DNA of 64,000 bases from Clostridia bacterium. GTDB lineage: Bacteria > Bacillota > Clostridia > UBA1212 > UBA1255. This document shows positions 1-13,809 of this stretch, one piece after another. The notes under the pieces are model-generated. The model was not told the origin of the DNA, made no database searches, and saw only the letters and a list, made by a program, of their open reading frames with translations. The position numbers and the translations under genes are program-made. Every line of letters begins with the position of its first letter. Positions within the stretch are counted from its first letter, which is position 1. The DNA is taken from positions 388 to 64,387 of the forward strand of contig JAFWZX010000038.1 in NCBI GenBank assembly GCA_017517275.1, written 5' to 3'.

Positions 1-331
1 AGCTGATTTTTATATGATCGTTAAAAAATTCTACCACTACGTCCACTACAGCATTTCTTAGTGCCGACACACTCATAATTGTAATAAATGCTACAGATAA
101 CAGAATCATTATTGCCAGAGCTATTCGGAAAAGGAGCCTGTAGCGTCTGACTTTCCTTGGCTTGCATCTTTCCTTCTTAGTCAAAGCCTTTTTCTTTTGC
201 TCAAATTTCCTACTGAAAACAACTTGCGTTACGTCTAATGATTCAAATAATTCTATATCATCCGACAATTTATTATCACAAAGAGCCGAAGCTATCATGA
301 TGTCTAATTTATCAAAATTATCCTTATTCAT
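1..331 (-). CDS. anti-sigma-factor-like membrane protein (partial, C-terminus lies beyond the window start)
   Basis: The minus-strand frame is open from the ATG at 331 to the window edge. It reads MNKDNFDKLDIMIASALCDNKL...KPRKVRRYRLLFRIALAIMILLSVAFITIM, a basic stretch followed by one TM helix. Its start overlaps the stop of the upstream sigma gene (ATGAATAA), as is typical for sigma/anti-sigma pairs. It is absent from the ORF track because it has no stop in the window. Confidence 0.5.
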   Translation of the reverse strand, partial: MNKDNFDKLDIMIASALCDNKLSDDIELFESLDVTQVVFSRKFEQKKKALTKKERCKPRKVRRYRLLFRIALAIMILLSVAFITIMSVSALRNAVVDVVVEFFNDHIKIS

Positions 332-893
332 ACAGTCTGGCACCTCCTTTCTCAAGGAGAATCTTCTTTGCTCTGCTGATTCTGGTAGCAACAGCACCGG
401 GATTAATGCAAAGAAGTTCTGCAATCTTATTATTTCCCATATTGAAATAATATTTGAGAATAAGTACGTCTCTGTATTTATAGTCCAGTTCGCTTACAAG
501 CTTGAAAAGAAATCTGTTATTTTCTTCACTAATTATGATTCGTTCAGGATCGTATGTATCGTCAATTACCGCCTCTTCTTCCATAGACTCCTCATCCATA
601 GTTATTGACTTTTCGCGGACTCTTTTCAAATTACCGTTTCTATAGAAGTTAAAAGCTTCATTTCTGCAATAAATCATAATTAACCTTATCAGATCGTCAC
701 CTTCTACAGATCTGAAAATTTCCAGGTGGTTAATTATTCTTTTTACAACTTCGTGAACACAATCTTCCGACGACTCGTGATTTCCTAATATCTTAAAGAT
801 ATAGGCAAACATTTTCTTTGAGTATTTTTCGTATATATCCTCTACGAAGATTTTATCCTCTTCAGAAGATATACACGTTATTATTGGTAACAT
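324..893 (-). CDS. RNA polymerase sigma factor, sigma-70 family (small ECF-like, regions 2 and 4)
   Basis: The product is ~190 aa. It has a C-terminal region-4 HTH (KYYFNMGNNKIAELLCINPGAVATRISRAKKILLEK) and a region-2-like segment (DCVHEVVKRIINHLEIF). The ATG at 893 is preferred over the TTG at 908. Confidence 0.8.
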   Translation of the reverse strand: MLPIITCISSEEDKIFVEDIYEKYSKKMFAYIFKILGNHESSEDCVHEVVKRIINHLEIFRSVEGDDLIRLIMIYCRNEAFNFYRNGNLKRVREKSITMDEESMEEEAVIDDTYDPERIIISEENNRFLFKLVSELDYKYRDVLILKYYFNMGNNKIAELLCINPGAVATRISRAKKILLEKGGARLYE

Positions 894-946
894 ATATATC
901 ACTTCCAAGGTCTATTTTAACATATAATAAGTAAGTTTGCATTTTA

Positions 947-3046: not shown

Positions 3047-3082
3047 ATAAAAAAAGGCATTATTCAGTGAGAATAATGCCTT
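3047..3082 (-). terminator. rho-independent terminator after the surface-protein pair
   Basis: In the minus sense it reads AAGGCATTATTC-tcact-GAATAATGCCTT followed by TTTTTTTAT. That is a 12-bp perfect stem about 20 nt downstream of the stop at 3105. Confidence 0.75.
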
Positions 3083-3104: not shown

Positions 3105-4250
3105 CTATTTTCTCTTTTTGATAATAACAGTTGCACCGAGAATCATCAGAATCTGAGCGATTGCCATAGAAGATCCGCATCCGCCTGATTTTTCATTCTT
3201 GTTGTCTGCAGTAGGAGCCTGTGTAGCTTCAGGAGCTTTAGTAGCAGGAGCCTGCGTAGGAACTGTAGTTGGAGCAGGTGTAGCTGTAGGCTCAGGAGTT
3301 GTGTTAATCGGATCATCAACATCAGCACTGAACTCATACGGCACTACTGCCCAATTGTCGATACCCATGATACCGGGGTTGAGAGACGCTAAGTTGAAGT
3401 TTGCATATGTGTTGATATATGCATTTGAAGTAGAGGCTACTTCCTCTCCTGCTGCATTGTAAATAACAGCTTTTGTAAAGAAGTCATCCTTAATTTCAGA
3501 AAGCTTCATAGTAGCAATAAGCTGATTTGTATTGCAATAAAACTTTACAGTACCTGAAATATCATCAATGACAGTAATCTTATTCCATGACTCTAACGCA
3601 CCGTTAGCCAAAGTATGAACGTATTGAGCTTTGACAGTAGCATCTTTATCAACAACGTAAATAACAATCTCGTCTTTTGTATCATCTGCTACGTTAAATG
3701 CTACACAGAAACCAATCTTTGCAGCATACTTGTCAGATTCGGAATTTGTAGCAACACATACCTTCTCTTTGCCCTGCGGGCCTTTGCCGTCTGCATTCTC
3801 ATCTACGTCAAAAACAAGACCTACAAATTTGTCTGCTTCTGCGCCAATTAACTTTATATCCATCTGAATCATATATGAATCAGCAATATACTGGTCAATC
3901 ATAAAATACGTATCTTTTGTATAAGAAACGTAACGATTATCTTCTTCATCACTAAAATACGGTGTCTTGGTATCGTCAAAATCAATATTGAACATCGAAA
4001 CATTATCCCTGATATAACTGTAATAAGCTCTACCAGATCTTATGATCTCACCGTCCTCAAACGTCTGGGCGATGTCATCTTCACTGTCCATCCAAAAACC
4101 ATCGTTCTCATCATTTACAACTTCTCCACCATAAACGTCAAAGAAAGTTCTATCCTCCGGATAGGGAGCTGCCATCACAGTCGTAACAGACAAAGATGCC
4201 AGGATGATGATAGTTAGTGCAAGCAACAACAATTTTGTAAAAAGTTTCAT
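3105..4250 (-). CDS. secreted protein with Pro/Thr-rich linker and conserved C-terminal SGGCGSS-TM-KKRK module (paralog A)
   Basis: It has an N-terminal signal peptide (MKLFTKLLLLALTIIILASLSVTTVMA|AP) and a ~270-aa globular part of unknown fold. A TPEPTATPAPTTVPTQAPATKAPEATQAPT linker follows. The C-terminus is SGGCGSSMAIAQILMILGATVIIKKRK. Confidence 0.8.
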   Translation of the reverse strand: MKLFTKLLLLALTIIILASLSVTTVMAAPYPEDRTFFDVYGGEVVNDENDGFWMDSEDDIAQTFEDGEIIRSGRAYYSYIRDNVSMFNIDFDDTKTPYFSDEEDNRYVSYTKDTYFMIDQYIADSYMIQMDIKLIGAEADKFVGLVFDVDENADGKGPQGKEKVCVATNSESDKYAAKIGFCVAFNVADDTKDEIVIYVVDKDATVKAQYVHTLANGALESWNKITVIDDISGTVKFYCNTNQLIATMKLSEIKDDFFTKAVIYNAAGEEVASTSNAYINTYANFNLASLNPGIMGIDNWAVVPYEFSADVDDPINTTPEPTATPAPTTVPTQAPATKAPEATQAPTADNKNEKSGGCGSSMAIAQILMILGATVIIKKRK

Positions 4251-4287
4251 TGTTTAACCTCCTCATATTTTATATCAATTATTTGAA

Positions 4288-5439
4288 TTACTTTCTCTTC
4301 TTTATAATCAAGCCACAGGCCAGAACTGCCATAATTTGAGCAATAGCTAATGATGAACCACAGCCGCCGGACTCTTTATCTGTCTCAGGGGCTTGCGTAG
4401 CAGGTACCGTAGTAGGTGCTGTAGTAGGTGCTGTAGTAGGTGCACTTGTCGGCGGAACCGGAGTCTCCTTAACAGCTTCTTTGATAGGATCATTAAGTGT
4501 CATATCATATTCATCAGGATAAATGCCCCAATTGTCAACACAAAAGTCTCCTGTGGAAATATTTGCAATACTAACGTTAGACTCTTGATAAACCTTAGCC
4601 TTTGAAGTTGACGCTACTTCCTTTCCCGTTTTATCAAGAATTGTTGCTTTAGTAAAATATGAATCTTTAAGTTCTGCAAGGTTAATCGTAGCAACCAATT
4701 CATCTTTAACATAAAGCTTCATTACGCCTTCATTATTGTCAATAAGAGTAATATTTGTCCATGTATCAAAAGTTGCATTATCATAGTCGATTTCATATGA
4801 AGCAGTAACAGTTCCGTCACTATTTACAGCATATATAATAACCTGATCTTTTGTATCATCTGCTGCATATACACCAAAACCAAGACCAATTTTACTTGCG
4901 TATTTCAAGGAATCTGACAGGGTAGCTGTGCAAATGACTCCGTTATTATATTCAGCAGAGTTTGAATCCTGGTCTCCGCCCATTACAAAACCTGCAAAAG
5001 CGTCTCCCTCTACGGAGCTTTCTAATTTAACATCTACGTCCATGCGGAAAGCATCCCTGATAACAAAGTCAAAAATAATATAAGTACTTCCATTAAATCT
5101 AATATACTTGTTCACTTCATCTTCGCCGACCGCCTCATCTTTAAAAAAGGGACCGTCTCCGTCTGCACCGCTTGTATGCTTAGGTGTACTTGCATCTCTC
5201 AGATAACTCTGATAATGGTCACCTGATCTTACAGGTTCACCATCAGGAAAGGCAAGGGAAATATCATCTTCCGAATCCATCCAGAAGCCTTCGTTCTCAC
5301 TGTTAACGACAGAAGAACCGTAATGATCAAAAAAAGATGTAGAATCATCATAAGGAAATGCAACTACAGATAACTGCATTATTATAATGCTAAGCGAAAT
5401 AATAGCAATGATGCCCACAATCGATAATCTTTTCTTCAT
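4288..5439 (-). CDS. secreted protein with Pro/Thr-rich linker and conserved C-terminal SGGCGSS-TM-KKRK module (paralog B)
   Basis: It has a signal peptide (MKKRLSIVGIIAIISLSIIIMQLSVVA|FP). It shares N-terminal motifs with paralog A (FFDxYGxxVVNxENxGFWMDSEDDI), has an APTTAPTTAPTT linker, and ends SGGCGSSLAIAQIMAVLACGLIIKKRK. It lies 37 nt upstream of paralog A. Confidence 0.8.
   Translation of the reverse strand: MKKRLSIVGIIAIISLSIIIMQLSVVAFPYDDSTSFFDHYGSSVVNSENEGFWMDSEDDISLAFPDGEPVRSGDHYQSYLRDASTPKHTSGADGDGPFFKDEAVGEDEVNKYIRFNGSTYIIFDFVIRDAFRMDVDVKLESSVEGDAFAGFVMGGDQDSNSAEYNNGVICTATLSDSLKYASKIGLGFGVYAADDTKDQVIIYAVNSDGTVTASYEIDYDNATFDTWTNITLIDNNEGVMKLYVKDELVATINLAELKDSYFTKATILDKTGKEVASTSKAKVYQESNVSIANISTGDFCVDNWGIYPDEYDMTLNDPIKEAVKETPVPPTSAPTTAPTTAPTTVPATQAPETDKESGGCGSSLAIAQIMAVLACGLIIKKRK
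4409..4444. repeat. 3 x 12-bp in-frame tandem repeat (gtagtaggtgct) encoding APTT units
   Basis: There are three consecutive near-identical 12-mers inside the linker of the 4288-5439 CDS. Confidence 0.85.
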
Positions 5440-5506: not shown

Positions 5507-5535
5507 ATTCTACTGTACTGTTAATTATTTGTCAA
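5507..5535 (-). promoter_or_regulatory. putative sigma-A promoter for the surface-protein pair
   Basis: In the minus sense it reads TTGACA - 17 nt - TAGAAT, about 65 nt upstream of the ATG at 5439. Confidence 0.5.
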
Positions 5536-5573: not shown

Positions 5574-6440
5574 CTACAAAGACGCAATATAATCGTAGTC
5601 TGTCGGGTCGTATGTACAGGAAGCATCTATATCATCCCTTTTCAATGCATTCCACAGCATAGGATCTTCCTTACCCTCTATCGTGAAAACATACGACCAA
5701 GCAGCAACATTTTCATATATCCATTTAGAATCCTCTACAGCAAGTCGTATACAGCCGTCAGAGGCAGGAGTACCTAATTTATTCCAATCTTGCCACTTAA
5801 GGGAATTGTTATTTCCCCTTGATCCATACGGAACTGAATGGAATAAATAGTGGCTGAATGAATTTGATTCGTTACTCTGTCCGTAATTTGTCACAGAGAA
5901 CATTCTTGTTGCATAATGCCCGTAAACGTTATTAAATAATGACCGCCAAGTATATCTTGAATCTGATTTTATGTTATTTTCCAAAATAACCCAAGTCCCA
6001 ATGGGCGTCTCGTCTCCGCTTCTTCCTGAAGAACATATCATAGCACGTACAAGCTCGCCCTTGCCTCCGTTGTCAGTCATATCATAAACGTATACAATTT
6101 GCGCTTTAAGTGATACTTCAATATAATACTTCTTTTTCACAGGAACAGATACAGTCTTATCTATTATATGAGTCGGAACAGGACTTGGAGTCGGTGTATG
6201 CAAAGGATCAGAAGTAGGAGTTACAGACGGAACTACCGTTTGCATAGAACCTGAATGCATCGGCGATGAAGTATGTAACGGAGACTGCGACTGTATAACG
6301 GTGGCAGGCGGAGTTATATTTGGCAAATCATGCTCGTCATTAGAACATTTAGAAAACATCAACAAACTGAGTGTCGTAATAAAAATCAAAATTGCAAAGG
6401 CAAACGTAATATAAATTATTTTTTCTCTTTTGTGTTTCAT
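5574..6440 (-). CDS. L,D-transpeptidase (YkuD fold) with N-terminal membrane anchor and Pro/Ser/Thr-rich linker
   Basis: The catalytic motif is HSVPYG...GTPASDGCIRL (His ... Ser-x-Gly-Cys-Ile-Arg). There is one N-terminal TM helix (IIYITFAFAILIFITTLSLLMF). The start at MKHKREK (6440) has a GGAG RBS; the longer ORF to 6488 is less likely. Confidence 0.85.
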   Translation of the reverse strand: MKHKREKIIYITFAFAILIFITTLSLLMFSKCSNDEHDLPNITPPATVIQSQSPLHTSSPMHSGSMQTVVPSVTPTSDPLHTPTPSPVPTHIIDKTVSVPVKKKYYIEVSLKAQIVYVYDMTDNGGKGELVRAMICSSGRSGDETPIGTWVILENNIKSDSRYTWRSLFNNVYGHYATRMFSVTNYGQSNESNSFSHYLFHSVPYGSRGNNNSLKWQDWNKLGTPASDGCIRLAVEDSKWIYENVAAWSYVFTIEGKEDPMLWNALKRDDIDASCTYDPTDYDYIASL

Positions 6441-6487
6441 TATCTTTTGTTCTCCGTTATTTCTTATTCTTTTCCATAAGTATAGCA

Positions 6488-7255
6488 CTAAAAGCTCTCT
6501 ACGGCAAACGATACACCGTCAAGGCTCTCTAATTTCTTGATTTTATCTTCTCCATCCTCAAGATTTGCCGTGTTAATACATACTGTAACGCCCAAATATC
6601 CTACAGTATTACTTCTTGACGGAATTACCTGAAGCGACAGCGGTTTATAATTATCTCGTATATGATTCACAACAAAGGCAACCTTGTTGATATCCGAGAT
6701 CTCAAGATATATGTAAATCTGTTTTACTCTCTTATTTATATTAAACTCTACTTTAATCAAGATGGTAAACGTTAAAAGTACTATTCCAGCAACAATAATA
6801 GCGCCCTCGTAGAAACCGGCACCACAGGCAAGACCGACAGAAGCAGTAGCCCACAGACCGGCCGCTGTTGTAAGTCCCGTAATCTTCGCATCACCTTTTA
6901 TAAGTATCGTACCTACACCAAGAAAACCTATACCGGATATTACTTGAGCACCAAGGCGCATAGGATCTGATACATAGCCTAAAATCTCTGTTGTGTATAG
7001 TCCAAGCATAGCAGTAAGTGTGGCGCCTATACTAACCAAAATATGGGTTCTGAGTCCGGCAGCTCTACCGTGCTTTCCTCGCTGCATACCTATAATTCCG
7101 CTAAGGCAGGCGGCAAGTAAACACCGTATAATTATACTTATAATATTTAACTCCCGAATCGGATCCAAAAAATCCAACAACTGCGACACCTCTTCTTCTA
7201 ATATTGCATATAGAGTTGAATGATTTATTTTATGCTCCGTCACCTTTTGTGTCAA
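6488..7255 (-). CDS. MgtC/SapB family membrane protein
   Basis: It carries GMQRGKHGRAAGLRTHILVSIGATL and multiple TM helices, plus a C-terminal ACT-like soluble domain. The annotated start is a TTG, so the exact start is uncertain. Confidence 0.8.
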   Translation of the reverse strand: MTQKVTEHKINHSTLYAILEEEVSQLLDFLDPIRELNIISIIIRCLLAACLSGIIGMQRGKHGRAAGLRTHILVSIGATLTAMLGLYTTEILGYVSDPMRLGAQVISGIGFLGVGTILIKGDAKITGLTTAAGLWATASVGLACGAGFYEGAIIVAGIVLLTFTILIKVEFNINKRVKQIYIYLEISDINKVAFVVNHIRDNYKPLSLQVIPSRSNTVGYLGVTVCINTANLEDGEDKIKKLESLDGVSFAVESF

Positions 7256-7263
7256 GCAAATAT

Positions 7264-7299
7264 TTATAAAAATACAGCACGTGTAATCACGTGCTGTAT
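7264..7299 (-). terminator. rho-independent terminator after the lipoprotein gene
   Basis: The stem is ATACAGCACGTG-atta-CACGTGCTGTAT (12-bp perfect), followed by TTTTTAT in the minus sense. Confidence 0.75.
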
Positions 7300-7335
7300 T
7301 ATATATATGTGTATTAAGAATATATATTCGATAAA

Positions 7336-8139
7336 TTATTGAGCGTTTGTTACGTGTGCAGGATTCCAGTTCTGAGCTGCTTCTACAGTATCAAAGAAAC
7401 CGATGTAATCAACGTGGAAATAAAATTCGCCTGCCTGTTGTAAATCACTTAAATACTGATCAACAGAAAGTGCGTCAAGTCTTAAGTAACCAATATCAAT
7501 ACCGTTTGCAGCATCAACAAAGGACTTTCCCTTAACTGCTGTTAAATCAATAATGTATTCCTGGAATTCTGTGTCATTTGTTGATATCTGGTACTGTACG
7601 GTAGCCGCACCTAAGTTGCCGCCTGCGGCACACACAAATACCTCAAAAACTGGTACAGGGGTGGGGTTTTTAACTCTGATCTTCATTACCGGATAGTCGT
7701 AGAAAGACCATGGCATACCATCATCACCTGTTATCGGTAAATAAAAATACGGGTCATTAGCTACTATTTTGATTGTAAGTCCGTTGCCTTCCTCGTAATA
7801 ATATTCGCATGCTGTTCCCAAAGGAGACGTACCTACATCTGACGAAGAAATAAATCCTTCTAAATCCCACATATACATATCTTCTTCCCAGAATCTATAA
7901 AGAACCGCATCCACCTCAGGATCCGCCAAAGATGGGTCTTGAGTAGGCTTCAGGGTAGGCTCACTGGTCGGCTCTGTAGTAGGGGCTGTAGTAGGTGCCG
8001 TAGTTGGAGCAGCAGTCGGAGCAGTAGTCGGTGCTGTAGTTGGAGCTGTTGTTGGATCAGCATTATTATCATCTGAACAAGCAGCAAAGAACGTTACACA
8101 TAAGCACATAGTTAAAAGCAATGCTATTATTTTTTTCAT
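7336..8139 (-). CDS. lipoprotein with (A/E)PTT-repeat linker and C-terminal domain of unknown function
   Basis: It has a lipobox signal (MKKIIALLLTMCLCVTFFAAC|SDD). The linker PTTAPTTAPTTAPTAAPTTAPTTAPTTEPTSEPTLKPT follows, and then a ~190-aa globular domain. Confidence 0.8.
   Translation of the reverse strand: MKKIIALLLTMCLCVTFFAACSDDNNADPTTAPTTAPTTAPTAAPTTAPTTAPTTEPTSEPTLKPTQDPSLADPEVDAVLYRFWEEDMYMWDLEGFISSSDVGTSPLGTACEYYYEEGNGLTIKIVANDPYFYLPITGDDGMPWSFYDYPVMKIRVKNPTPVPVFEVFVCAAGGNLGAATVQYQISTNDTEFQEYIIDLTAVKGKSFVDAANGIDIGYLRLDALSVDQYLSDLQQAGEFYFHVDYIGFFDTVEAAQNWNPAHVTNAQ
7970..8056. repeat. imperfect 12-bp in-frame tandem repeats encoding the APTT linker
   Basis: The sequence reads ggctctgtagtaggggctgtagtaggtgccgtagttggagcagcagtcggagcagtagtcggtgctgtagttggagctgttgttgg. 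It shares a 14-nt core (gctgtagtaggtgc) with the repeat at 4409-4444. Confidence 0.8.
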
Positions 8140-8222
8140 ATATTAACCTCCAATTTCATATTTTTATATAATTTTAACACGGTGTTAACATTTCATCAAC
8201 CACTTTTGTACAAAATCGCTTA

Positions 8223-9479
8223 TTACATTCTACTTTTTTCTTCTAAATCATACGTCTCAACCAGCGCTTTAGTTATGGCATCGGCAATAACAGGCTTGTT
8301 ATCTATAATCCATTGAGCAGTTATCGGATTATCGTGAAAATTGACTTCTACAATCAATCCCATTATACCTACACTGTGAGGATTCCTTACCTCTCCGTAT
8401 CCGGCACCGTCAAACGCCTTCATACCGTCAATCAGCCACCCTTGATTAGATTCAATCGGACAACATTCTGTCAGTTCATCAATCAAATTACGTCCCAGCG
8501 TCATTCCTTCCTCGTCATCCGGATAATGGAAACACACAGGTCCGGTAGCAGTAGGAGCTTTACCTGTTGCGTTAGAGTGAATTGCCAGATATACGTCGCA
8601 ATTATTAGCTGCCGCTTCTGCAGAACGTTCACTAAGTCCGATTCCTATAGTCAAATCAGCGAGCATAACTTCACATTTGTACTTTTGAAGATTGTTATAA
8701 ACCATTTTAGCAACTGCAACCATTTGTTCCTCTTCATTAGTATCGCCCACGGCATACAGGTTTCCCGGCTGTTTGGATGGAGACAGATATATTTTCACGT
8801 TACCTTTATTAATTTCTTCCAATTCGTTTACCTTCTTTACATATGGAATACCTACTAATATTATTGCTGCGAGGCATAATGAAACAACGCATAACGGTTC
8901 CCAGATACTATGTCTTATGTTTTTTACTGAGTATTGAGGATTTTTACCTTTATTAACCAATGAAAATACAACTTTGAAGAGGAGGAAGCCTATCAACAAT
9001 CCAAACAGTCTGTATACTAAGAACGTAGTCCTTAATACGTATCCTACGTTAAGCAGACAAACGACTTCTATAATAACAGGAAACAATATTATGTAAATCG
9101 GTGCAATGTACAATTTCCTTGCTTTGTCCCATACGAGAGGAAACATTGCCCCCACTACGGTGAAAAGTAGCAGGGTGGTGACAATATCAGCCGTTTCCCC
9201 CGGTACAAAATGATATATATTGCCTGTAAGATAATTAATTTCCACCTCAAAAAACGGTATAGGATGTGCGTTTTCTAAATTAATTTGTGTTGTAAATCCC
9301 TGTCCTGTTATAATATCAGCCGACCAAACAGCAGCAGCGAATGTAATAGAAAAAACAAGAACAAATATAGCATGCAACCAATCAAAGGGCTTATTTTTAA
9401 CCTTTTTTAAAATGAAAATAACCATCTGCAAAAGTAACGTAATAATAAACGCTGCTGATAAAATGTAAATTTGTCCCAT
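8223..9479 (-). CDS. polytopic membrane (VanZ-like) domain fused to N-acetylmuramoyl-L-alanine amidase (Amidase_3)
   Basis: The C-terminal half carries DVYLAIHSNA ... GLIVEVNFHDN, typical of Amidase_3/CwlD-type enzymes. The N-terminal ~220 aa have 5-6 TM helices and VanZ-like motifs (INLENAHPIPFFE, ETADIVTTLLLFTVVGAMFP). Confidence 0.75.
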   Translation of the reverse strand: MGQIYILSAAFIITLLLQMVIFILKKVKNKPFDWLHAIFVLVFSITFAAAVWSADIITGQGFTTQINLENAHPIPFFEVEINYLTGNIYHFVPGETADIVTTLLLFTVVGAMFPLVWDKARKLYIAPIYIILFPVIIEVVCLLNVGYVLRTTFLVYRLFGLLIGFLLFKVVFSLVNKGKNPQYSVKNIRHSIWEPLCVVSLCLAAIILVGIPYVKKVNELEEINKGNVKIYLSPSKQPGNLYAVGDTNEEEQMVAVAKMVYNNLQKYKCEVMLADLTIGIGLSERSAEAAANNCDVYLAIHSNATGKAPTATGPVCFHYPDDEEGMTLGRNLIDELTECCPIESNQGWLIDGMKAFDGAGYGEVRNPHSVGIMGLIVEVNFHDNPITAQWIIDNKPVIADAITKALVETYDLEEKSRM

Positions 9480-9542
9480 AATTTCCGTCTCCTATTAATT
9501 AATCTTCTTTCATTTTAATTCATTAGAATAAATAAAACAAGA

Positions 9543-11276
9543 TTAATTATCCTGTTTTGCACTTATTTTCGGAGCGAAAGCTGAGGATATTTTCCTTGAA
9601 AACGGTGCAAATGCTTTCCTGGCTGCAGAAGCTAATTTAGGGTTTTTGAAAACATTATCGATTATCATCTCAACATTTTTGGTTATAACCCGAGAGGAAG
9701 GAATCTCATTGAAAACAAGTTCTAACGATTCGGCATCATTTTTCGTTCTGATATCTATGGTCCTCGAACATGCAAGTTCAAGAAAGGATACTCTGATTGA
9801 AAGCTTTCCGTAGACCACCTCACCCATAACAGCTATCTCGTATGATTCTGCTCCGATTTGTATAGTCTGCCTTGTAACCTTTCCGAAAGTGACGCAAAGC
9901 ATATATTCGTTGTTATTTTCTTTTACGGAAATTTCCAGCGTAGGCAACTTTTTTTTACCGTCACAAACTATTTTTTTCAGGAAAGAAATATTTGTTATTC
10001 CTTGTGAAAAATTATTATGCATTGCTTGTGAAATCAATGGAAACAAAGCCCCGCGTGCTGTATTTTTACCTGTAATAATATACTTCTTATTTTGTATTTT
10101 ATCTGAAAACCTGATAAAGGCCGCCCGTTTATTTTTATCATAATTCGGAATAATATTTGACTCAGTCGGAGCAGGTTTTGGAAGCGGTACCGATGAGGGA
10201 AAATAAGTTTTACCGAAGTACTTATGTGTTATGGCAAAAAAAGGTCCATTCTGTCCCAGTTCCTCATTACCGCAATTAGATACTATAAGCATATCTTTAT
10301 CTGTAAATCCAAGTATGTTTTGTCCAAAGATTCCGTTAAACAAGAATGTATTATCCTCACGGCCTACCCATATCTGACGGCCATAGTCATAATCTCCCAT
10401 CCACGAAGGAACAGACACTTTCTCTGCAAGCATATTATTTATTATGTTCACGGGAATTACAGCCTGCCCTTTCCATTTTCCTCCATTCAAAAAAAGTTGG
10501 CCCAGCTTTGCCGCATCATACAAGGTAAGGTATAGTCCCCAACCGCCTTTTTCAATTCCACACGGTGACAGCTCCCAGCATACGTCCGTAATATCAAGAG
10601 GTTGCCAAAGACGTGGCTTTAGATATTCCATCATATTTATTCCTGTTTTTTTCTTTACTATAGCACTCAACATAAAAGAATTCATACTGTCATAGTAGAA
10701 AATTTTTCCAGCCTTCTTGATTGCAATAGCATCAAAGTATCCTTTTATCCAGTCCGGCTCGTTCAAAGAGGATGATTCATTAAAAAGAACTCCGCTTTGC
10801 ATATTAAGAAGATGCTTTACCGTCACGTTTTTTCGCGCATTATATTGATGTTTTGTAATGTCTTCAGCAAAGATATCTGAAATACTTTCACCTATATTTA
10901 ACAAGCCCTCTTCCTGTAAAAAACCGACGGCAATACCTGTAATCGTTTTACTCAAAGAGTAGCACTCATGCCATATTCCGGCTTCATAACCGTGAAAACT
11001 CTGCTGCCATATTATCTTTCCGTGGCGAAGTATCATTATATTATGAAGATCAATCGTTCTTACACTTTTGAGGGCCTCAATATATTCCTTAATATATCTT
11101 GTATTAACGCCTTCGTCTTCAGGCAATACGTATGGAAAATCATTACCGTGCTTATCTTCCGATTTCCTCTGGACAGTTTTTTGCGTACAAAGAGGGAGCG
11201 CCGGAGTCAATCTTTTATCCGGAGACAGAATATCCATTATCATTTTTATACTTTTCAATTGCCTTTTTATACTCAT
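9543..11276 (-). CDS. serine hydrolase, beta-lactamase/transpeptidase fold (class C-like) with long C-terminal extension
   Basis: The SxxK motif appears in CYSLSKTITGIAVGFL, in a beta-lactamase-family context (HLLNMQSG). The product is 577 aa, with ~200 extra C-terminal residues of unknown function. Confidence 0.75.
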   Translation of the reverse strand: MSIKRQLKSIKMIMDILSPDKRLTPALPLCTQKTVQRKSEDKHGNDFPYVLPEDEGVNTRYIKEYIEALKSVRTIDLHNIMILRHGKIIWQQSFHGYEAGIWHECYSLSKTITGIAVGFLQEEGLLNIGESISDIFAEDITKHQYNARKNVTVKHLLNMQSGVLFNESSSLNEPDWIKGYFDAIAIKKAGKIFYYDSMNSFMLSAIVKKKTGINMMEYLKPRLWQPLDITDVCWELSPCGIEKGGWGLYLTLYDAAKLGQLFLNGGKWKGQAVIPVNIINNMLAEKVSVPSWMGDYDYGRQIWVGREDNTFLFNGIFGQNILGFTDKDMLIVSNCGNEELGQNGPFFAITHKYFGKTYFPSSVPLPKPAPTESNIIPNYDKNKRAAFIRFSDKIQNKKYIITGKNTARGALFPLISQAMHNNFSQGITNISFLKKIVCDGKKKLPTLEISVKENNNEYMLCVTFGKVTRQTIQIGAESYEIAVMGEVVYGKLSIRVSFLELACSRTIDIRTKNDAESLELVFNEIPSSRVITKNVEMIIDNVFKNPKLASAARKAFAPFSRKISSAFAPKISAKQDN

Positions 11277-11294
11277 GCAAAACCATCCTTATTG

Positions 11295-11332
11295 ACAAAT
11301 AAAGCCTGCTTAACTGATGATAAAGCAGGCTT
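11295..11332 (-). terminator. rho-independent terminator after rubrerythrin
   Basis: In the minus sense it reads AAGCCTGCTT-tatcatcagtt-AAGCAGGCTT followed by TATTTGT. Confidence 0.6.
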
Positions 11333-11354
11333 CGTAGTTACTATAGTTATTATA

Positions 11355-11894
11355 TCAATAATTCTCAGCTTTAATCTGGAAATATGCCTGTGGATGATCG
11401 CATACAGGACATTTTACAGGAGCTTTCTTGCCGACCATAATGTGTCCGCAGTTAGCACACTGCCAAATAACGTCACCGTCTTTTGAGAAAACAGCCTCGC
11501 CCTTAACGTTTGCAAGGAGTTTTCTGTATCTTTCTTCATGCTCTTTCTCAATCTTAGCTACAGCTTCGAATAAATAAGCAATTCTTGTAAAGCCTTCTTC
11601 TTTTGCTTCTTTTGCAAAAGTTGCGTACATATCCGTCCACTCATAATTTTCCCCCTCAGCTGCATCAAGAAGATTATCTGCTGTTGCAGGAACTCCGTCA
11701 TTATGAAGAATCTTAAACCATATTTTTGCATGTTCTTTTTCATTATTTGCTGTCTCTTCAAATATAGCAGCAATCTGCTCATAACCGTCTTTTCTTGCTT
11801 TTGATGCGTAGTAAGTATACTTGTTTCTTGCCTGTGACTCACCTGCAAATGCTGCCATCAAGTTAGCTTCTGTCTTTGAACCTTTTAATTCCAT
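11355..11894 (-). CDS. rbr: rubrerythrin
   Basis: It has an N-terminal diiron ferritin-like domain ([28 protein letters not shown]) and a C-terminal rubredoxin-like CANCGH...CPVCDHP. The ATG at 11894 (MELKGSK) has better RBS spacing than 11903. Confidence 0.9.
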
Positions 11895-11956
11895 TGTAAT
11901 CATACTCCTTTTATTTTTTTATCTATTATACCAAAAAAAAATGAATTCCTCCACTT

Positions 11957-12598
11957 TTATTTCTGATATTCTTCAATACTTCTTGCAATTATTATATATG
12001 TGTCATTCTTCATCAAGCGAAGAGCAGCCAGCATATTCTCCTGCGGAATGCAGACGCATCCGGCAGAGCCGTCAGACCCTTTGCGAGTACAATGAAGAAA
12101 TATAGCCGACCCTCTTGCGGGAATTATCGGATCGACGTTAAAATTAATCATCGCTGCATAATTATATGACTCTTTATAGTCAATTAAATGTTCTGAAGCT
12201 CCGCGATTCCAGTTATCAGGCATATCACAGCCGCGTACGTGAGTATTATACGTAGGAGAGTTACAATCCCCATCCCAATAGTCTTCCTCATCTACTTTTG
12301 TATATGAACAACTGAGTCCCCCGGGATTATCACATATTCCAAACTTTTCACCGATAGAATATATGCCTTGAGGAGTAGTCATGCTGCCTTCTTGTCTATA
12401 TTCAGGATGCATATCAACACCGTTTCTGCCAAGATATCCGCGACATTCAAAGGCTTGCCGCCACTGATTACCGTTTTTAATAAAAGCATGAAAAGTGCAT
12501 TTATTGCAATCTCTGTCTTGATATGTCAAAAAGACGGTATCAGCCGTCTTTCCGTTTAATATTTTATTAATTGCTGCAGTAAAGTCATTATTTAACAT
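11957..12598 (-). CDS. L,D-transpeptidase-fold protein (YkuD_2/YafK-like), no signal peptide
   Basis: It carries GSAIFLHCTRKGSDGSAGCVCIP (His ... Gly-Cys active-site arrangement). It is a paralog of the upstream gene (shared ASEHLIDYxESYNYAAMINFNVDP). The start is uncertain (12598 or 12619). Confidence 0.65.
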   Translation of the reverse strand: MLNNDFTAAINKILNGKTADTVFLTYQDRDCNKCTFHAFIKNGNQWRQAFECRGYLGRNGVDMHPEYRQEGSMTTPQGIYSIGEKFGICDNPGGLSCSYTKVDEEDYWDGDCNSPTYNTHVRGCDMPDNWNRGASEHLIDYKESYNYAAMINFNVDPIIPARGSAIFLHCTRKGSDGSAGCVCIPQENMLAALRLMKNDTYIIIARSIEEYQK

Positions 12599-13316
12599 AA
12601 TTCTCAAATTCCTCTGCATTACGTAATATCACGATATAGCCGTCTTTATTTCCCATAAGTTTGAGACACTCTATCATTTTATCTTCCGGAATCGCAACAC
12701 ATCCGGCGGAAGAGGAAGCACCTGTTCTTGTACAATGCAGGAAAATACACGAGCCTTTCCCCGGAATCGCAGGATCAACGTTAAAGTTAATCATCGCTGC
12801 ATAATTGTATGATTCTACATAATCTATAAGATGCTCTGAAGAGGCAGGATTCCATGAATCCGGCATTTCACTTCCCTTTACGTGCTGATTATACGTATCG
12901 GTACTTGAATCTCCGTTCCAATAATCATCTTCAGTGACCTTTGTATATTGTCCTGCAAGACCTGAGGGCCTGTCATATATTCCGAAACGCTCTCCTAAAG
13001 AATATATTCCGCCGGGAGTCGTACCGTCACCGGCATGGCGTGTATCAGGGTCGGACAATACTCCACTCCTGCCAACGTATCCTTCTGTAACGAATTCTTC
13101 TGTCCATACTCCCCAAGACTTAGTGTATGCATAATACGTGCAAAATGTAGTAAACTCGTCTTGTACAACAACGAAAATCACGTCGGCATCATCTGAAATT
13201 GGAAGTTCCTTTAACCTCATACCGAATGTTCCTCCGACTTTTTCAGGATCCGGTGCGCATCCAATCATAGAAAAGAATACTGCAATCAACAGAAAAAAAC
13301 ATAAAAACTTTCGCAT
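12588..13316 (-). CDS. L,D-transpeptidase-fold lipoprotein (YkuD_2/YafK-like)
   Basis: It has a lipobox signal (MRKFLCFFLLIAVFFSMIGC|APD) when started at 13316, and GSCIFLHCTRTGASSSAGCVAIP. The 13355 start of the ORF track would overlap the upstream deaminase gene. Confidence 0.7.
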   Translation of the reverse strand: MRKFLCFFLLIAVFFSMIGCAPDPEKVGGTFGMRLKELPISDDADVIFVVVQDEFTTFCTYYAYTKSWGVWTEEFVTEGYVGRSGVLSDPDTRHAGDGTTPGGIYSLGERFGIYDRPSGLAGQYTKVTEDDYWNGDSSTDTYNQHVKGSEMPDSWNPASSEHLIDYVESYNYAAMINFNVDPAIPGKGSCIFLHCTRTGASSSAGCVAIPEDKMIECLKLMGNKDGYIVILRNAEEFENYVK

Positions 13317-13320
13317 AACT

Positions 13321-13809
13321 TTAGTACCCACGGACACCCTCCACTGATTCATCATTCTCTATCCAATCTGATACCTTAATAACTCTGTACGAATCTTTGT
13401 CGTCTCTTATGTATACTGTCTCAATGCCACTGTTTATTACAACTCTTTTGCACATTGAGCAACACATACCATTAGAAACGTAGCTGCCGTCTTTAACGTT
13501 TATTCCGGTAAGAAACATCGCGGCTCCTATCATTTTATCGCGGGGAGCAGATATAATTGCATTCATTTCAGCATGTACACTTCTGCACAGCTCGTAGCGT
13601 TCCCCCCTGGGAATTTGCAGCTTTTCACGAATACAAACACCAATATCCGAACAGTTTTGTCTTCCTCTGGGCGCTCCCACGTATCCGGTGGAGATAACCT
13701 CGTCATTCTTTACGATTACTGCGCCATAGCGTCTTCTGAGGCACGTGCCTCTTTGTGAAACGACTTCTGCCAAATCGAGGTAGTAGTTAATCTTATCCCT
13801 GCGTGCCAT
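13321..13809 (-). CDS. comEB: deoxycytidylate (dCMP) deaminase, ComEB-type
   Basis: The zinc motifs are VHAEMNAI and CCSMCKRVVINSG. The N-terminus (YYLDLAEVVSQRGTCLRRRYGAVIV) is typical of dCMP deaminases. Confidence 0.85.
   Translation of the reverse strand: MARRDKINYYLDLAEVVSQRGTCLRRRYGAVIVKNDEVISTGYVGAPRGRQNCSDIGVCIREKLQIPRGERYELCRSVHAEMNAIISAPRDKMIGAAMFLTGINVKDGSYVSNGMCCSMCKRVVINSGIETVYIRDDKDSYRVIKVSDWIENDESVEGVRGY

Follow-up and report, generated by a model that had tools for sequence, protein, structure and literature searches.

The window analysed here is a 64,000-nucleotide stretch of contig JAFWZX010000038.1 from a Clostridia bacterium, and the subject of this report is a pair of adjacent genes within it, called A and B, whose secreted products end in nearly the same tail: a Gly- and Ser-rich motif around a cysteine, a hydrophobic helix, and a cluster of four basic residues. 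The tail family is genuine, has many copies per genome, and occurs only in a narrow lineage without cultured members; the tail module appears to be undescribed and matches no curated family. By analogy with known systems we favour, with modest confidence, the view that the last 26–27 residues of A and B are a lineage-specific, portable C-terminal anchoring or sorting signal of the Cys-containing tripartite class that is processed by an enzyme. The more specific proposal, that this would be the first Cys-dependent C-terminal sorting system in a Gram-positive (monoderm) bacterium, with an unlinked CPBP-type or new intramembrane enzyme and a C-terminal Cys that is modified and probably lipidated, is put forward tentatively, as something slightly short of an even chance. 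The set of proteins that a bacterium displays at its surface is determined by C-terminal sorting signals, whose successive discovery has each time brought a new sorting enzyme to light (sortase, exosortase, archaeosortase, rhombosortase, and myxosortase).

Conservation of the tail between A and B

A preliminary description of this DNA had reported two adjacent signal-peptide genes with diverged bodies and a strictly conserved C-terminal module, the last 27 residues being almost the same. Both open reading frames (ORFs) were recovered on the minus strand, A at 3105..4250 (381 aa) and B at 4288..5439 (383 aa); the product of A comprises a signal peptide, an ectodomain, a Pro/Thr linker and the GGCGSS tail, and the product of B shows the order signal peptide, putatively lectin-like ectodomain, Pro/Thr linker and GGCGSS tail. 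The two are paralogous (41% identity, E 6e-89 by BLASTP) and their bodies have indeed diverged, with an ectodomain amino acid identity of 0.42. The tails of A (3108..3188, minus strand) and B (4291..4371, minus strand) read SGGCGSSMAIAQILMILGATVIIKKRK and SGGCGSSLAIAQIMAVLACGLIIKKRK, each composed of SGGCGSS, a predicted helix (MAIAQILMILGATVII in A, LAIAQIMAVLACGLII in B), KKRK, and a stop codon. Strict conservation was found for the stretches SGGCGSS, AIAQI, and IIKKRK; it does not extend to the whole tail, in which 19/27 residues are identical.

The conserved residues had also been said to use different codons, which is exactly the case: SGGCGSS is encoded by TCA GGC GGA TGC GGA TCT TCT versus TCC GGC GGC TGT GGT TCA TCA, and 51/81 bases of the tail DNA are identical. 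Synonymous (pS) and nonsynonymous (pN) divergence between A and B were 0.88 and 0.20 for the tail (amino acid identity 0.70), and 0.69 and 0.37 for the ectodomain. Averaged over 253 tail pairs taken from unlinked genes, pS was 0.71 and pN 0.16. Because the synonymous sites are saturated everywhere and the tail pN is low, the conservation of the tail is to be ascribed to purifying selection acting on the peptide, with recent gene conversion ruled out, as the preliminary description had argued.

The tandem paralogy of A and B is what an origin of the shared tail by recent duplication or gene conversion of adjacent genes would start from; that account, and with it the reading of the tail as a divergent LPXTG-type sortase signal, is refuted and retains practically no probability. 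Gene conversion is rejected by the divergence of the tail DNA at its synonymous sites and by an orthologous pair that already exists in another species, and duplication or conversion is rejected by the presence of the tail on unrelated proteins at unlinked loci. In the other species, represented by the metagenome-assembled genome (MAG) JAZQDE01 (assembly GCA_045546695.1, locus L001), protein P0002 is a syntenic ortholog of A (75% identity), and P0003 (43% identity to A) lies at the position syntenic with B; since the tandem pair is present and syntenic there, the duplication that gave A and B is old. The sortase-type signal is rejected by the absence of an LPXTG-like pentapeptide, of a sortase signature in the window, and of a match to the LPXTG model. 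No ORF in the window has a C-terminal LPXTG-like motif or a sortase TLxTC signature, in agreement with the earlier statement that the window holds neither an LPXTG motif nor a sortase gene.

The tail on unrelated proteins

A search with ORF A returned four homologs of the ectodomain and nine proteins that have only the linker and tail in common with it, their bodies being unrelated. Scored against 1.84 billion representative proteins, a profile built from 13 tails (A1) matched 39 clusters at E<=1e-3, of which 21 reached E<=1e-10; all the matches fall at the extreme C-terminus of proteins 58–1766 aa in length. (A 41-aa tail alignment run against a 5.8-billion-protein collection gave 1 match from 205 candidates; the word index used there is ill-suited to short profiles.) The tail is therefore not confined to the two genes, and the proposal of the preliminary description, which such a confinement was to refute, passes that test: the tail occurs in at least 39 protein clusters, as 71 unique tails, on cargo that is unrelated from cluster to cluster. 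Pfam domains recognised in the cargo were CBM6, NPCBM, Big_3, F5/8-type-C-like (discoidin-like), sialidase lectin insertion, Flg_new (Listeria-Bacteroides repeats), and Y_phosphatase3, i.e., mostly glycan-binding or adhesive domains, the exceptions being a tyrosine phosphatase and a giant coiled coil. Each of the 28 tail-bearing ORFs in the window and the fetched loci has a Pro/Thr linker, a charged patch, the tail, and a stop codon in this order, so that linker and charged patch stand in front of every tail, and all those complete at the 5' end start with a signal peptide.

At the DNA level, a degenerate tail pattern matched the window twice versus 0.00 expected from 100 shuffles. The same pattern had 20 matches in 185,579 species genomes (one genome each), all of them in two MAGs, 'Oscillospiraceae bacterium SIG424' (SVJB01) and 'Clostridia bacterium ... 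SGB_1177' (JAZQDE01), and 1 further match in metagenome contigs of the Joint Genome Institute (JGI), on one short contig. Counting variants, the numbers of tail ORFs in the loci fetched from the two MAGs come to at least 15 and at least 7, to which the two in the window are added. NCBI names place the tail-bearing hosts in Ruminococcaceae/Oscillospiraceae.

One cargo domain is also found on lipoproteins. A family with a lipobox Cys, a Pro/Thr linker, and a domain of ~190 aa is encoded in the window (7336..8139, minus strand; lipobox FFAAC followed by S), in L001 (6113..6922), in L002 (8984..9778), and in L014 (6176..7060), and its genes adjoin tail genes at the syntenic locus L001 and at the two further, non-syntenic loci L002 and L014. 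The lipoprotein domain is homologous to the cargo of several tail-bearing proteins, among them P0022, P0009, and P0035 (hhalign probability 97.5%, E 6.3e-12). By this homology, one cargo domain would be displayed from either end, through an N-terminal lipid anchor or through the C-terminal tail, which suggests that the tail is an equivalent membrane tether.

Two tail-bearing proteins differ from the rest in their build. P0028 (1766 aa) has two lipoprotein-like display domains split by PT/PE linkers, followed by ~1000 residues of Ala/Glu/Lys-rich coiled coil that precede the tail; its build suggests a long fibril on the surface. P0013 has an N-terminal half unrelated to P0012 and a C-terminal half and tail almost identical to those of P0012, which probably reflects a misassembled metagenome or a chimeric gene call.

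Anatomy of the tail

As read from the aligned sequences, the tail consists of the motif [G/S/K]-G-C-G-S-S, a predicted 16-residue helix x-A-I-A-Q-v-M-L-v-L-G-A-A-l-i-I, and K-K-[K/R]-K followed by the stop codon. The Cys is exactly the 24th residue from the C-terminus in 53/71 unique tails, and position counts relative to the Cys were taken over these 53 fixed-length tails. The Cys, residue 358 in A, is invariant (53/53) and is the sole invariant column of the alignment (A3). Upstream of it, positions -6 to -3 are mostly E, D or K (-3 being D, K, E or S), -2 is G in 37/53 tails with S, K or E in the other 16/53, and -1 is G in 52/53. Downstream of it, +1 is G in 52/53, +2 is S in 49/53, and +3 is S in 51/53. 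Within the helix, +7 is A and +8 is Q or H in 52/53 tails each, +14 is G in 49/53, and no helix column contains Pro in any of the 53. Positions +20 to +23 are K or R in all 53. Three features of the tail go beyond what a generic anchor needs: the invariant extramembrane motif, the fixed length, and a conserved polar residue and Gly inside the helix. The polar residue and the Gly are as expected if a membrane enzyme reads the helix.

Variants of this layout were seen. P0044 and P0046 have two adjacent Cys (…GCCAGS…AIAQIMF(I/V)LGAA…KSKKK), and P0045 and P0047 keep GGCGSS and KKR(K/D) with a different helix that is without the AQ pair. Given these variants, the range of the motif may be wider than the core lineage.

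Comparison with known C-terminal signals

The nearest models of NCBIfam (release 20.0) all remained far below threshold. These were the C-termini of the MYXO-CTERM-anchored families MXAN_6652 and MXAN_2561 (8 and 5 of the 13 tails, best E 0.0048), Synerg-CTERM TIGR04564 (1/13 tails, E 0.015), Rumino_NPXTG (E 0.016, the aligned part of the model not being established), and arch_PEF_CTERM (two tails, E 0.1). With the same 13 tails, TIGR03901, GlyGly-CTERM TIGR03501, PEP-CTERM, PGF-CTERM, Firmicu-CTERM TIGR04145, and LPXTG TIGR01167 did not appear among the listings at E<=10; the scan can pick up short models, since others of the CTERM type did appear in it. The comparison with Pfam models and with those of NCBIfam, the latter proposed in the preliminary description with Firmicu-CTERM and MYXO-CTERM as examples, thus placed the tail in no family and upheld its being uncharacterised; NCBI names the tail-bearing proteins 'hypothetical protein', and no literature on the tail emerged when full texts were searched for the motif and for newly described C-terminal sorting signals.

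Two of the general features by which Haft recognises a tripartite signal are present: motif, helix, and basic cluster at the extreme C-terminus of proteins with an N-terminal signal peptide, and several proteins per genome that carry one tag on unrelated cargo. Four Cys-containing tripartite signals (MYXO-, JDVT-, Synerg-, and CGP-CTERM) have each been paired with a CPBP/Rce1-type protease by comparative genomics (10.1101/2023.06.07.544157), and MYXO-CTERM cleavage has been shown experimentally to be MrtX-dependent and Cys-dependent (PMC11980579). To judge from its sequence, the tail appears closest to this class of Haft's, yet outside each of its families; it falls outside the MYXO-, Synerg-, and CGP-CTERM families because model score, helix Pro, GP after the Cys, and taxon all fail.

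MYXO-CTERM (TIGR03901, enzyme MrtX) resembles the tail in an invariant Cys within a Gly/Ser-rich motif (GC-G/S), a helix, a basic cluster, and many targets per genome with diverse cargo, and its enzyme is unlinked to the targets; the GCCAGS of P0044 and P0046 recalls the GCGC form of MYXO-CTERM. Unlike it, the tail does not match TIGR03901 and belongs to Gram-positive Oscillospiraceae, not to the diderm Myxococcota, so that delivery to an outer membrane by type II secretion is out of the question. In the tail the basic cluster is Lys-rich and has exactly four residues, whereas that of MYXO-CTERM is Arg-rich. A Gln/His is also near-invariant in the tail helix; of the MYXO-CTERM helix, all that is reported is the lack of charged and Pro residues. 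Synerg-CTERM (enzyme MrtS) and CGP-CTERM (enzyme MrtA, Thermococcales) share with the tail a short Ser/Gly-rich motif with a single invariant Cys by the helix and a restriction to one lineage, and CGP-CTERM also operates in a single-membrane cell. However, the Synerg-CTERM motif ends at the Cys without a spacer and its helix Pro is invariant, whereas in the tail the Cys is followed by G-S-S and there is no Pro; the Cys of CGP-CTERM precedes an invariant GP, whereas the tail reads C-G-S-S and matches no CGP model.

Signals outside the Cys class are similar in outline. PGF-CTERM (archaeosortase A, haloarchaeal S-layer glycoprotein) also belongs to a single-membrane envelope and follows a Thr-rich linker, and its helix is removed with a lipid put in its place and the C-terminal tether kept, an outline that resembles what is proposed below for the tail. 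It differs in having the PGF motif, which the tail lacks, in requiring no Cys, in an enzyme of the exosortase/archaeosortase family, and in the absence of a model match. GlyGly-CTERM (rhombosortase) likewise begins with Gly-Gly, has small residues where the helix starts, and closes with basic residues; in the tail, however, the Cys is invariant and Gly-Gly is not, TIGR03501 is unmatched, and GlyGly-CTERM is confined to Proteobacteria and dependent on type II secretion. The LPXTG signal (sortase A) is a Gram-positive surface tag of motif, helix, and basic tail that often follows a Pro/Thr-rich wall-spanning region, but the tails contain no LPXTG or NPXTG pentapeptide and the window no sortase. 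Cys-based chemistry is not known among sortase substrates.

N-terminal lipoproteins (Lgt, Lsp) have, as is predicted for the tail, a Cys at the outer membrane face by a discardable helix, and small residues, as in the G, S, S of the tail, after it. The lipobox, however, is N-terminal, needs a hydrophobic residue at -3, and follows its helix, whereas the tail is C-terminal, has a charged residue (or S) at -3, and has its Cys before the helix. Canonical Lgt/Lsp processing was rejected on these grounds, i.e., the wrong -3 residue and a topology reversed with respect to the [LVI][ASTVI][GAS]C lipobox.

Proposed processing of the tail and its alternatives

The processed signal that we favour would work as follows. 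The N-terminal signal peptide is predicted to route the protein through Sec, and the C-terminal helix would act as a stop-transfer anchor which, by the positive-inside rule, places KKRK in the cytoplasm and the invariant Cys at the outer membrane face. By analogy with the known Cys-type systems, a dedicated membrane enzyme encoded elsewhere may read the helix face (A at +7, Q/H at +8, G at +14) together with GCGSS; the Cys thiol might then receive a modification, of which a lipid is the most plausible, and cleavage beside the Cys might remove the helix. To go by the analogous MrtX, MrtS, and MrtA, this enzyme would most likely be a CPBP/Rce1-type glutamic intramembrane protease. The mature lectin-like or carbohydrate-binding module (CBM) ectodomain would stay tethered to the membrane, held off from it by a Pro/Thr stalk of 30–45 residues.

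If true, a Cys-lipidated C-terminal anchor would be the mirror image of N-terminal lipoprotein anchoring, and an uncultured gut Oscillospiraceae lineage would display its glycan-binding proteins in this way. A Cys-type signal in Gram-positive Clostridia would extend the chemistry to a new kind of envelope and would offer a candidate natural substrate class for the CPBP proteases of prokaryotes, enzymes that Firmicutes have in abundance and for most of which no substrate is known. With a profile of the tag, annotation pipelines could mark ~40 'hypothetical' families as proteins displayed at the surface and, for the most part, binding glycans; this significance is limited by the very small range of taxa and by there being no host in culture.

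We examined if a processing enzyme is encoded near the tail genes. The neighbours of P0002, P0012, P0006, and P0045 were compared, the 206 ORFs of the window and 17 loci were clustered, every ORF with >=3 predicted helices or CPBP-like motifs was inspected, and unannotated membrane proteins were scanned with Pfam. None of this revealed a gene for a CPBP, rhomboid, sortase or exosortase enzyme, whether in the 64-kb window, in the 10 kb past its left end (through GlmM), or in ~180 kb of loci around other tail genes (~250 kb overall). Housekeeping sorting enzymes are usually unlinked to their targets, and for this reason the lack of a linked enzyme is weak evidence against processing. Other points also weigh against the processed signal: the similarity to known CTERM models falls far short of their thresholds; the known Cys-type signals come from diderm bacteria or archaea and none from a Gram-positive organism, the four systems paired with CPBP proteases including none from Firmicutes (10.1101/2023.06.07.544157); and the lineage is narrow, so that conservation of the helix could in part reflect a recent common origin of the module and not recognition. 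The saturation of the synonymous sites argues against such a recent origin.

The tail could instead be a plain, unprocessed type I membrane anchor, spread by domain shuffling in one lineage and never cleaved, in which case the conserved Cys, Gln, and Gly would be there for helix-helix packing, disulfide-linked dimer formation, S-acylation, or the binding of a partner protein in the membrane. For anchoring, a hydrophobic helix and KKRK suffice, and the absence of a processing enzyme near any of the ~30 loci, the very narrow lineage, and the lack of a match to any curated sorting-domain model are all as this account would have it. Ordinary anchors, however, do not keep an invariant extramembrane GCGSS, a fixed distance from the C-terminus, and the near-invariant helix residues A, Q/H, and G, and here such features are kept across unrelated cargo despite saturated synonymous sites. 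Moreover, a multi-copy tag at the extreme C-terminus of diverse cargo is the pattern that defines processed sorting signals (10.1101/2023.06.07.544157). We hold a plain anchor to be unlikely, though not far-fetched.

A variant of the processed signal would replace the CPBP-type protease by a rhomboid (rhombosortase-like) or an exosortase/archaeosortase-like enzyme; a rhomboid might cut in the small-residue stretch GGCGSSxA atop the helix, with subsequent transfer to a lipid or shedding of the ectodomain into the medium. In most tails Gly-Gly stands right before the Cys, small residues enter the helix, and a helix-destabilising Gly lies at +14, an arrangement that resembles GlyGly-CTERM and rhomboid substrates, and two tails match arch_PEF_CTERM weakly. 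Yet the first Gly is replaceable (by S, K or E, as counted above) whereas the Cys never varies, the GlyGly-, PEP-, PGF-, and Firmicu-CTERM models gave no match even at E<=10, and neither a rhomboid nor an exosortase gene was seen in the examined DNA. This variant is accordingly given a low probability, clearly below that of the plain anchor.

Organization and ectodomains of A and B

The gap between B and A is 37 nt. Upstream of B lies a promoter-like site (5507..5535, minus strand; TTGACA, 17 nt spacer, TAGAAT; 11/12 consensus matches), which is a consensus match only, the count of such sites in the region being not above chance. A strong terminator-like hairpin (3054..3082, minus strand; 12-bp stem and T run) begins 23 nt past the stop codon of A. 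The promoter-like site 5' of B and the hairpin 3' of A bracket the pair and suggest that B and A likely form one bicistronic transcription unit.

The predicted Sec signal peptides comprise aa 1-27 of A (4170..4250, minus strand; cleavage between ...TTVMA and AP, the site following from the small-x-small rule) and aa 1-27 of B (5359..5439, minus strand; putative cleavage between ...SVVA and FP). The ectodomain of A spans aa 28-315 (3306..4169, minus strand). The Pro/Thr-rich linkers, at 3189..3305 in A and 4372..4470 in B, both on the minus strand, each have a charged patch at the end (NTTPEPTATPAPTTVPTQAPATKAPEATQAPTADNKNEK in A, KETPVPPTSAPTTAPTTAPTTVPATQAPETDKE in B).

Scans of the full proteins assigned A and B to no Pfam or NCBIfam family. 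The AlphaFold2 model of A was weak overall (predicted local distance difference test, pLDDT, 52.6), with residues 180-305 all-beta at pLDDT 75-90. Its top Foldseek matches in the PDB were lectin-like domains of botulinum neurotoxin Hc (N-domain), galectin-like YesU (1oq1), the calreticulin lectin domain, and a legume lectin, at TM-scores of 0.25-0.48. The ectodomain of A is probably a lectin beta-sandwich of the concanavalin-A-like type, an assignment that is tentative because the structure prediction is poor; a lectin-like ectodomain of A and B would fit the glycan-binding theme of the cargo.

Neighbouring genes

The neighbours that the preliminary description had named were found as described, a YkuD L,D-transpeptidase at 5574..6488 (minus strand, Pfam E 4.6e-15) and the lipobox and Pro/Thr-linker protein at 7336..8139. 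They belong to a dense cell-wall cluster (5574..13355, minus strand) that is syntenic with MAG JAZQDE01. The cluster includes three YkuD paralogs (5574..6488, 11957..12619, and 12588..13355), an MgtC-family protein (6488..7255, minus strand), and a 577-aa protein with a beta-lactamase fold (9543..11276, minus strand). Also in the cluster, at 8223..9479 (minus strand), a 418-aa protein has an Amidase_3 domain (N-acetylmuramoyl-L-alanine amidase) fused to an N-terminal domain of ~226 aa with 6 predicted helices. This helical domain had no Pfam match at E<=0.1, and the fusion is kept in synteny in L001 and L025.

About 5 kb past the left end of the window (L025 16189..16860) a multi-pass membrane protein of the HlyIII/PAQR family is encoded; no other unassigned polytopic membrane protein whose family might be hydrolytic was seen near the pair, and nothing ties the HlyIII/PAQR protein to the tail. 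An extracytoplasmic function (ECF)-type sigma factor (Sigma70_r4_2) and a DUF4367-like putative anti-sigma factor lie within 2-10 kb of tail genes at several unlinked loci (window 324..908, minus strand; L025 11401..12667; L001 13386..14640; L002 1503..2757; L003 14547..15834). This pair might regulate the tail-bearing surface proteins, or it might represent just a common paralog family. The window also encodes a SleB-type spore cortex hydrolase.

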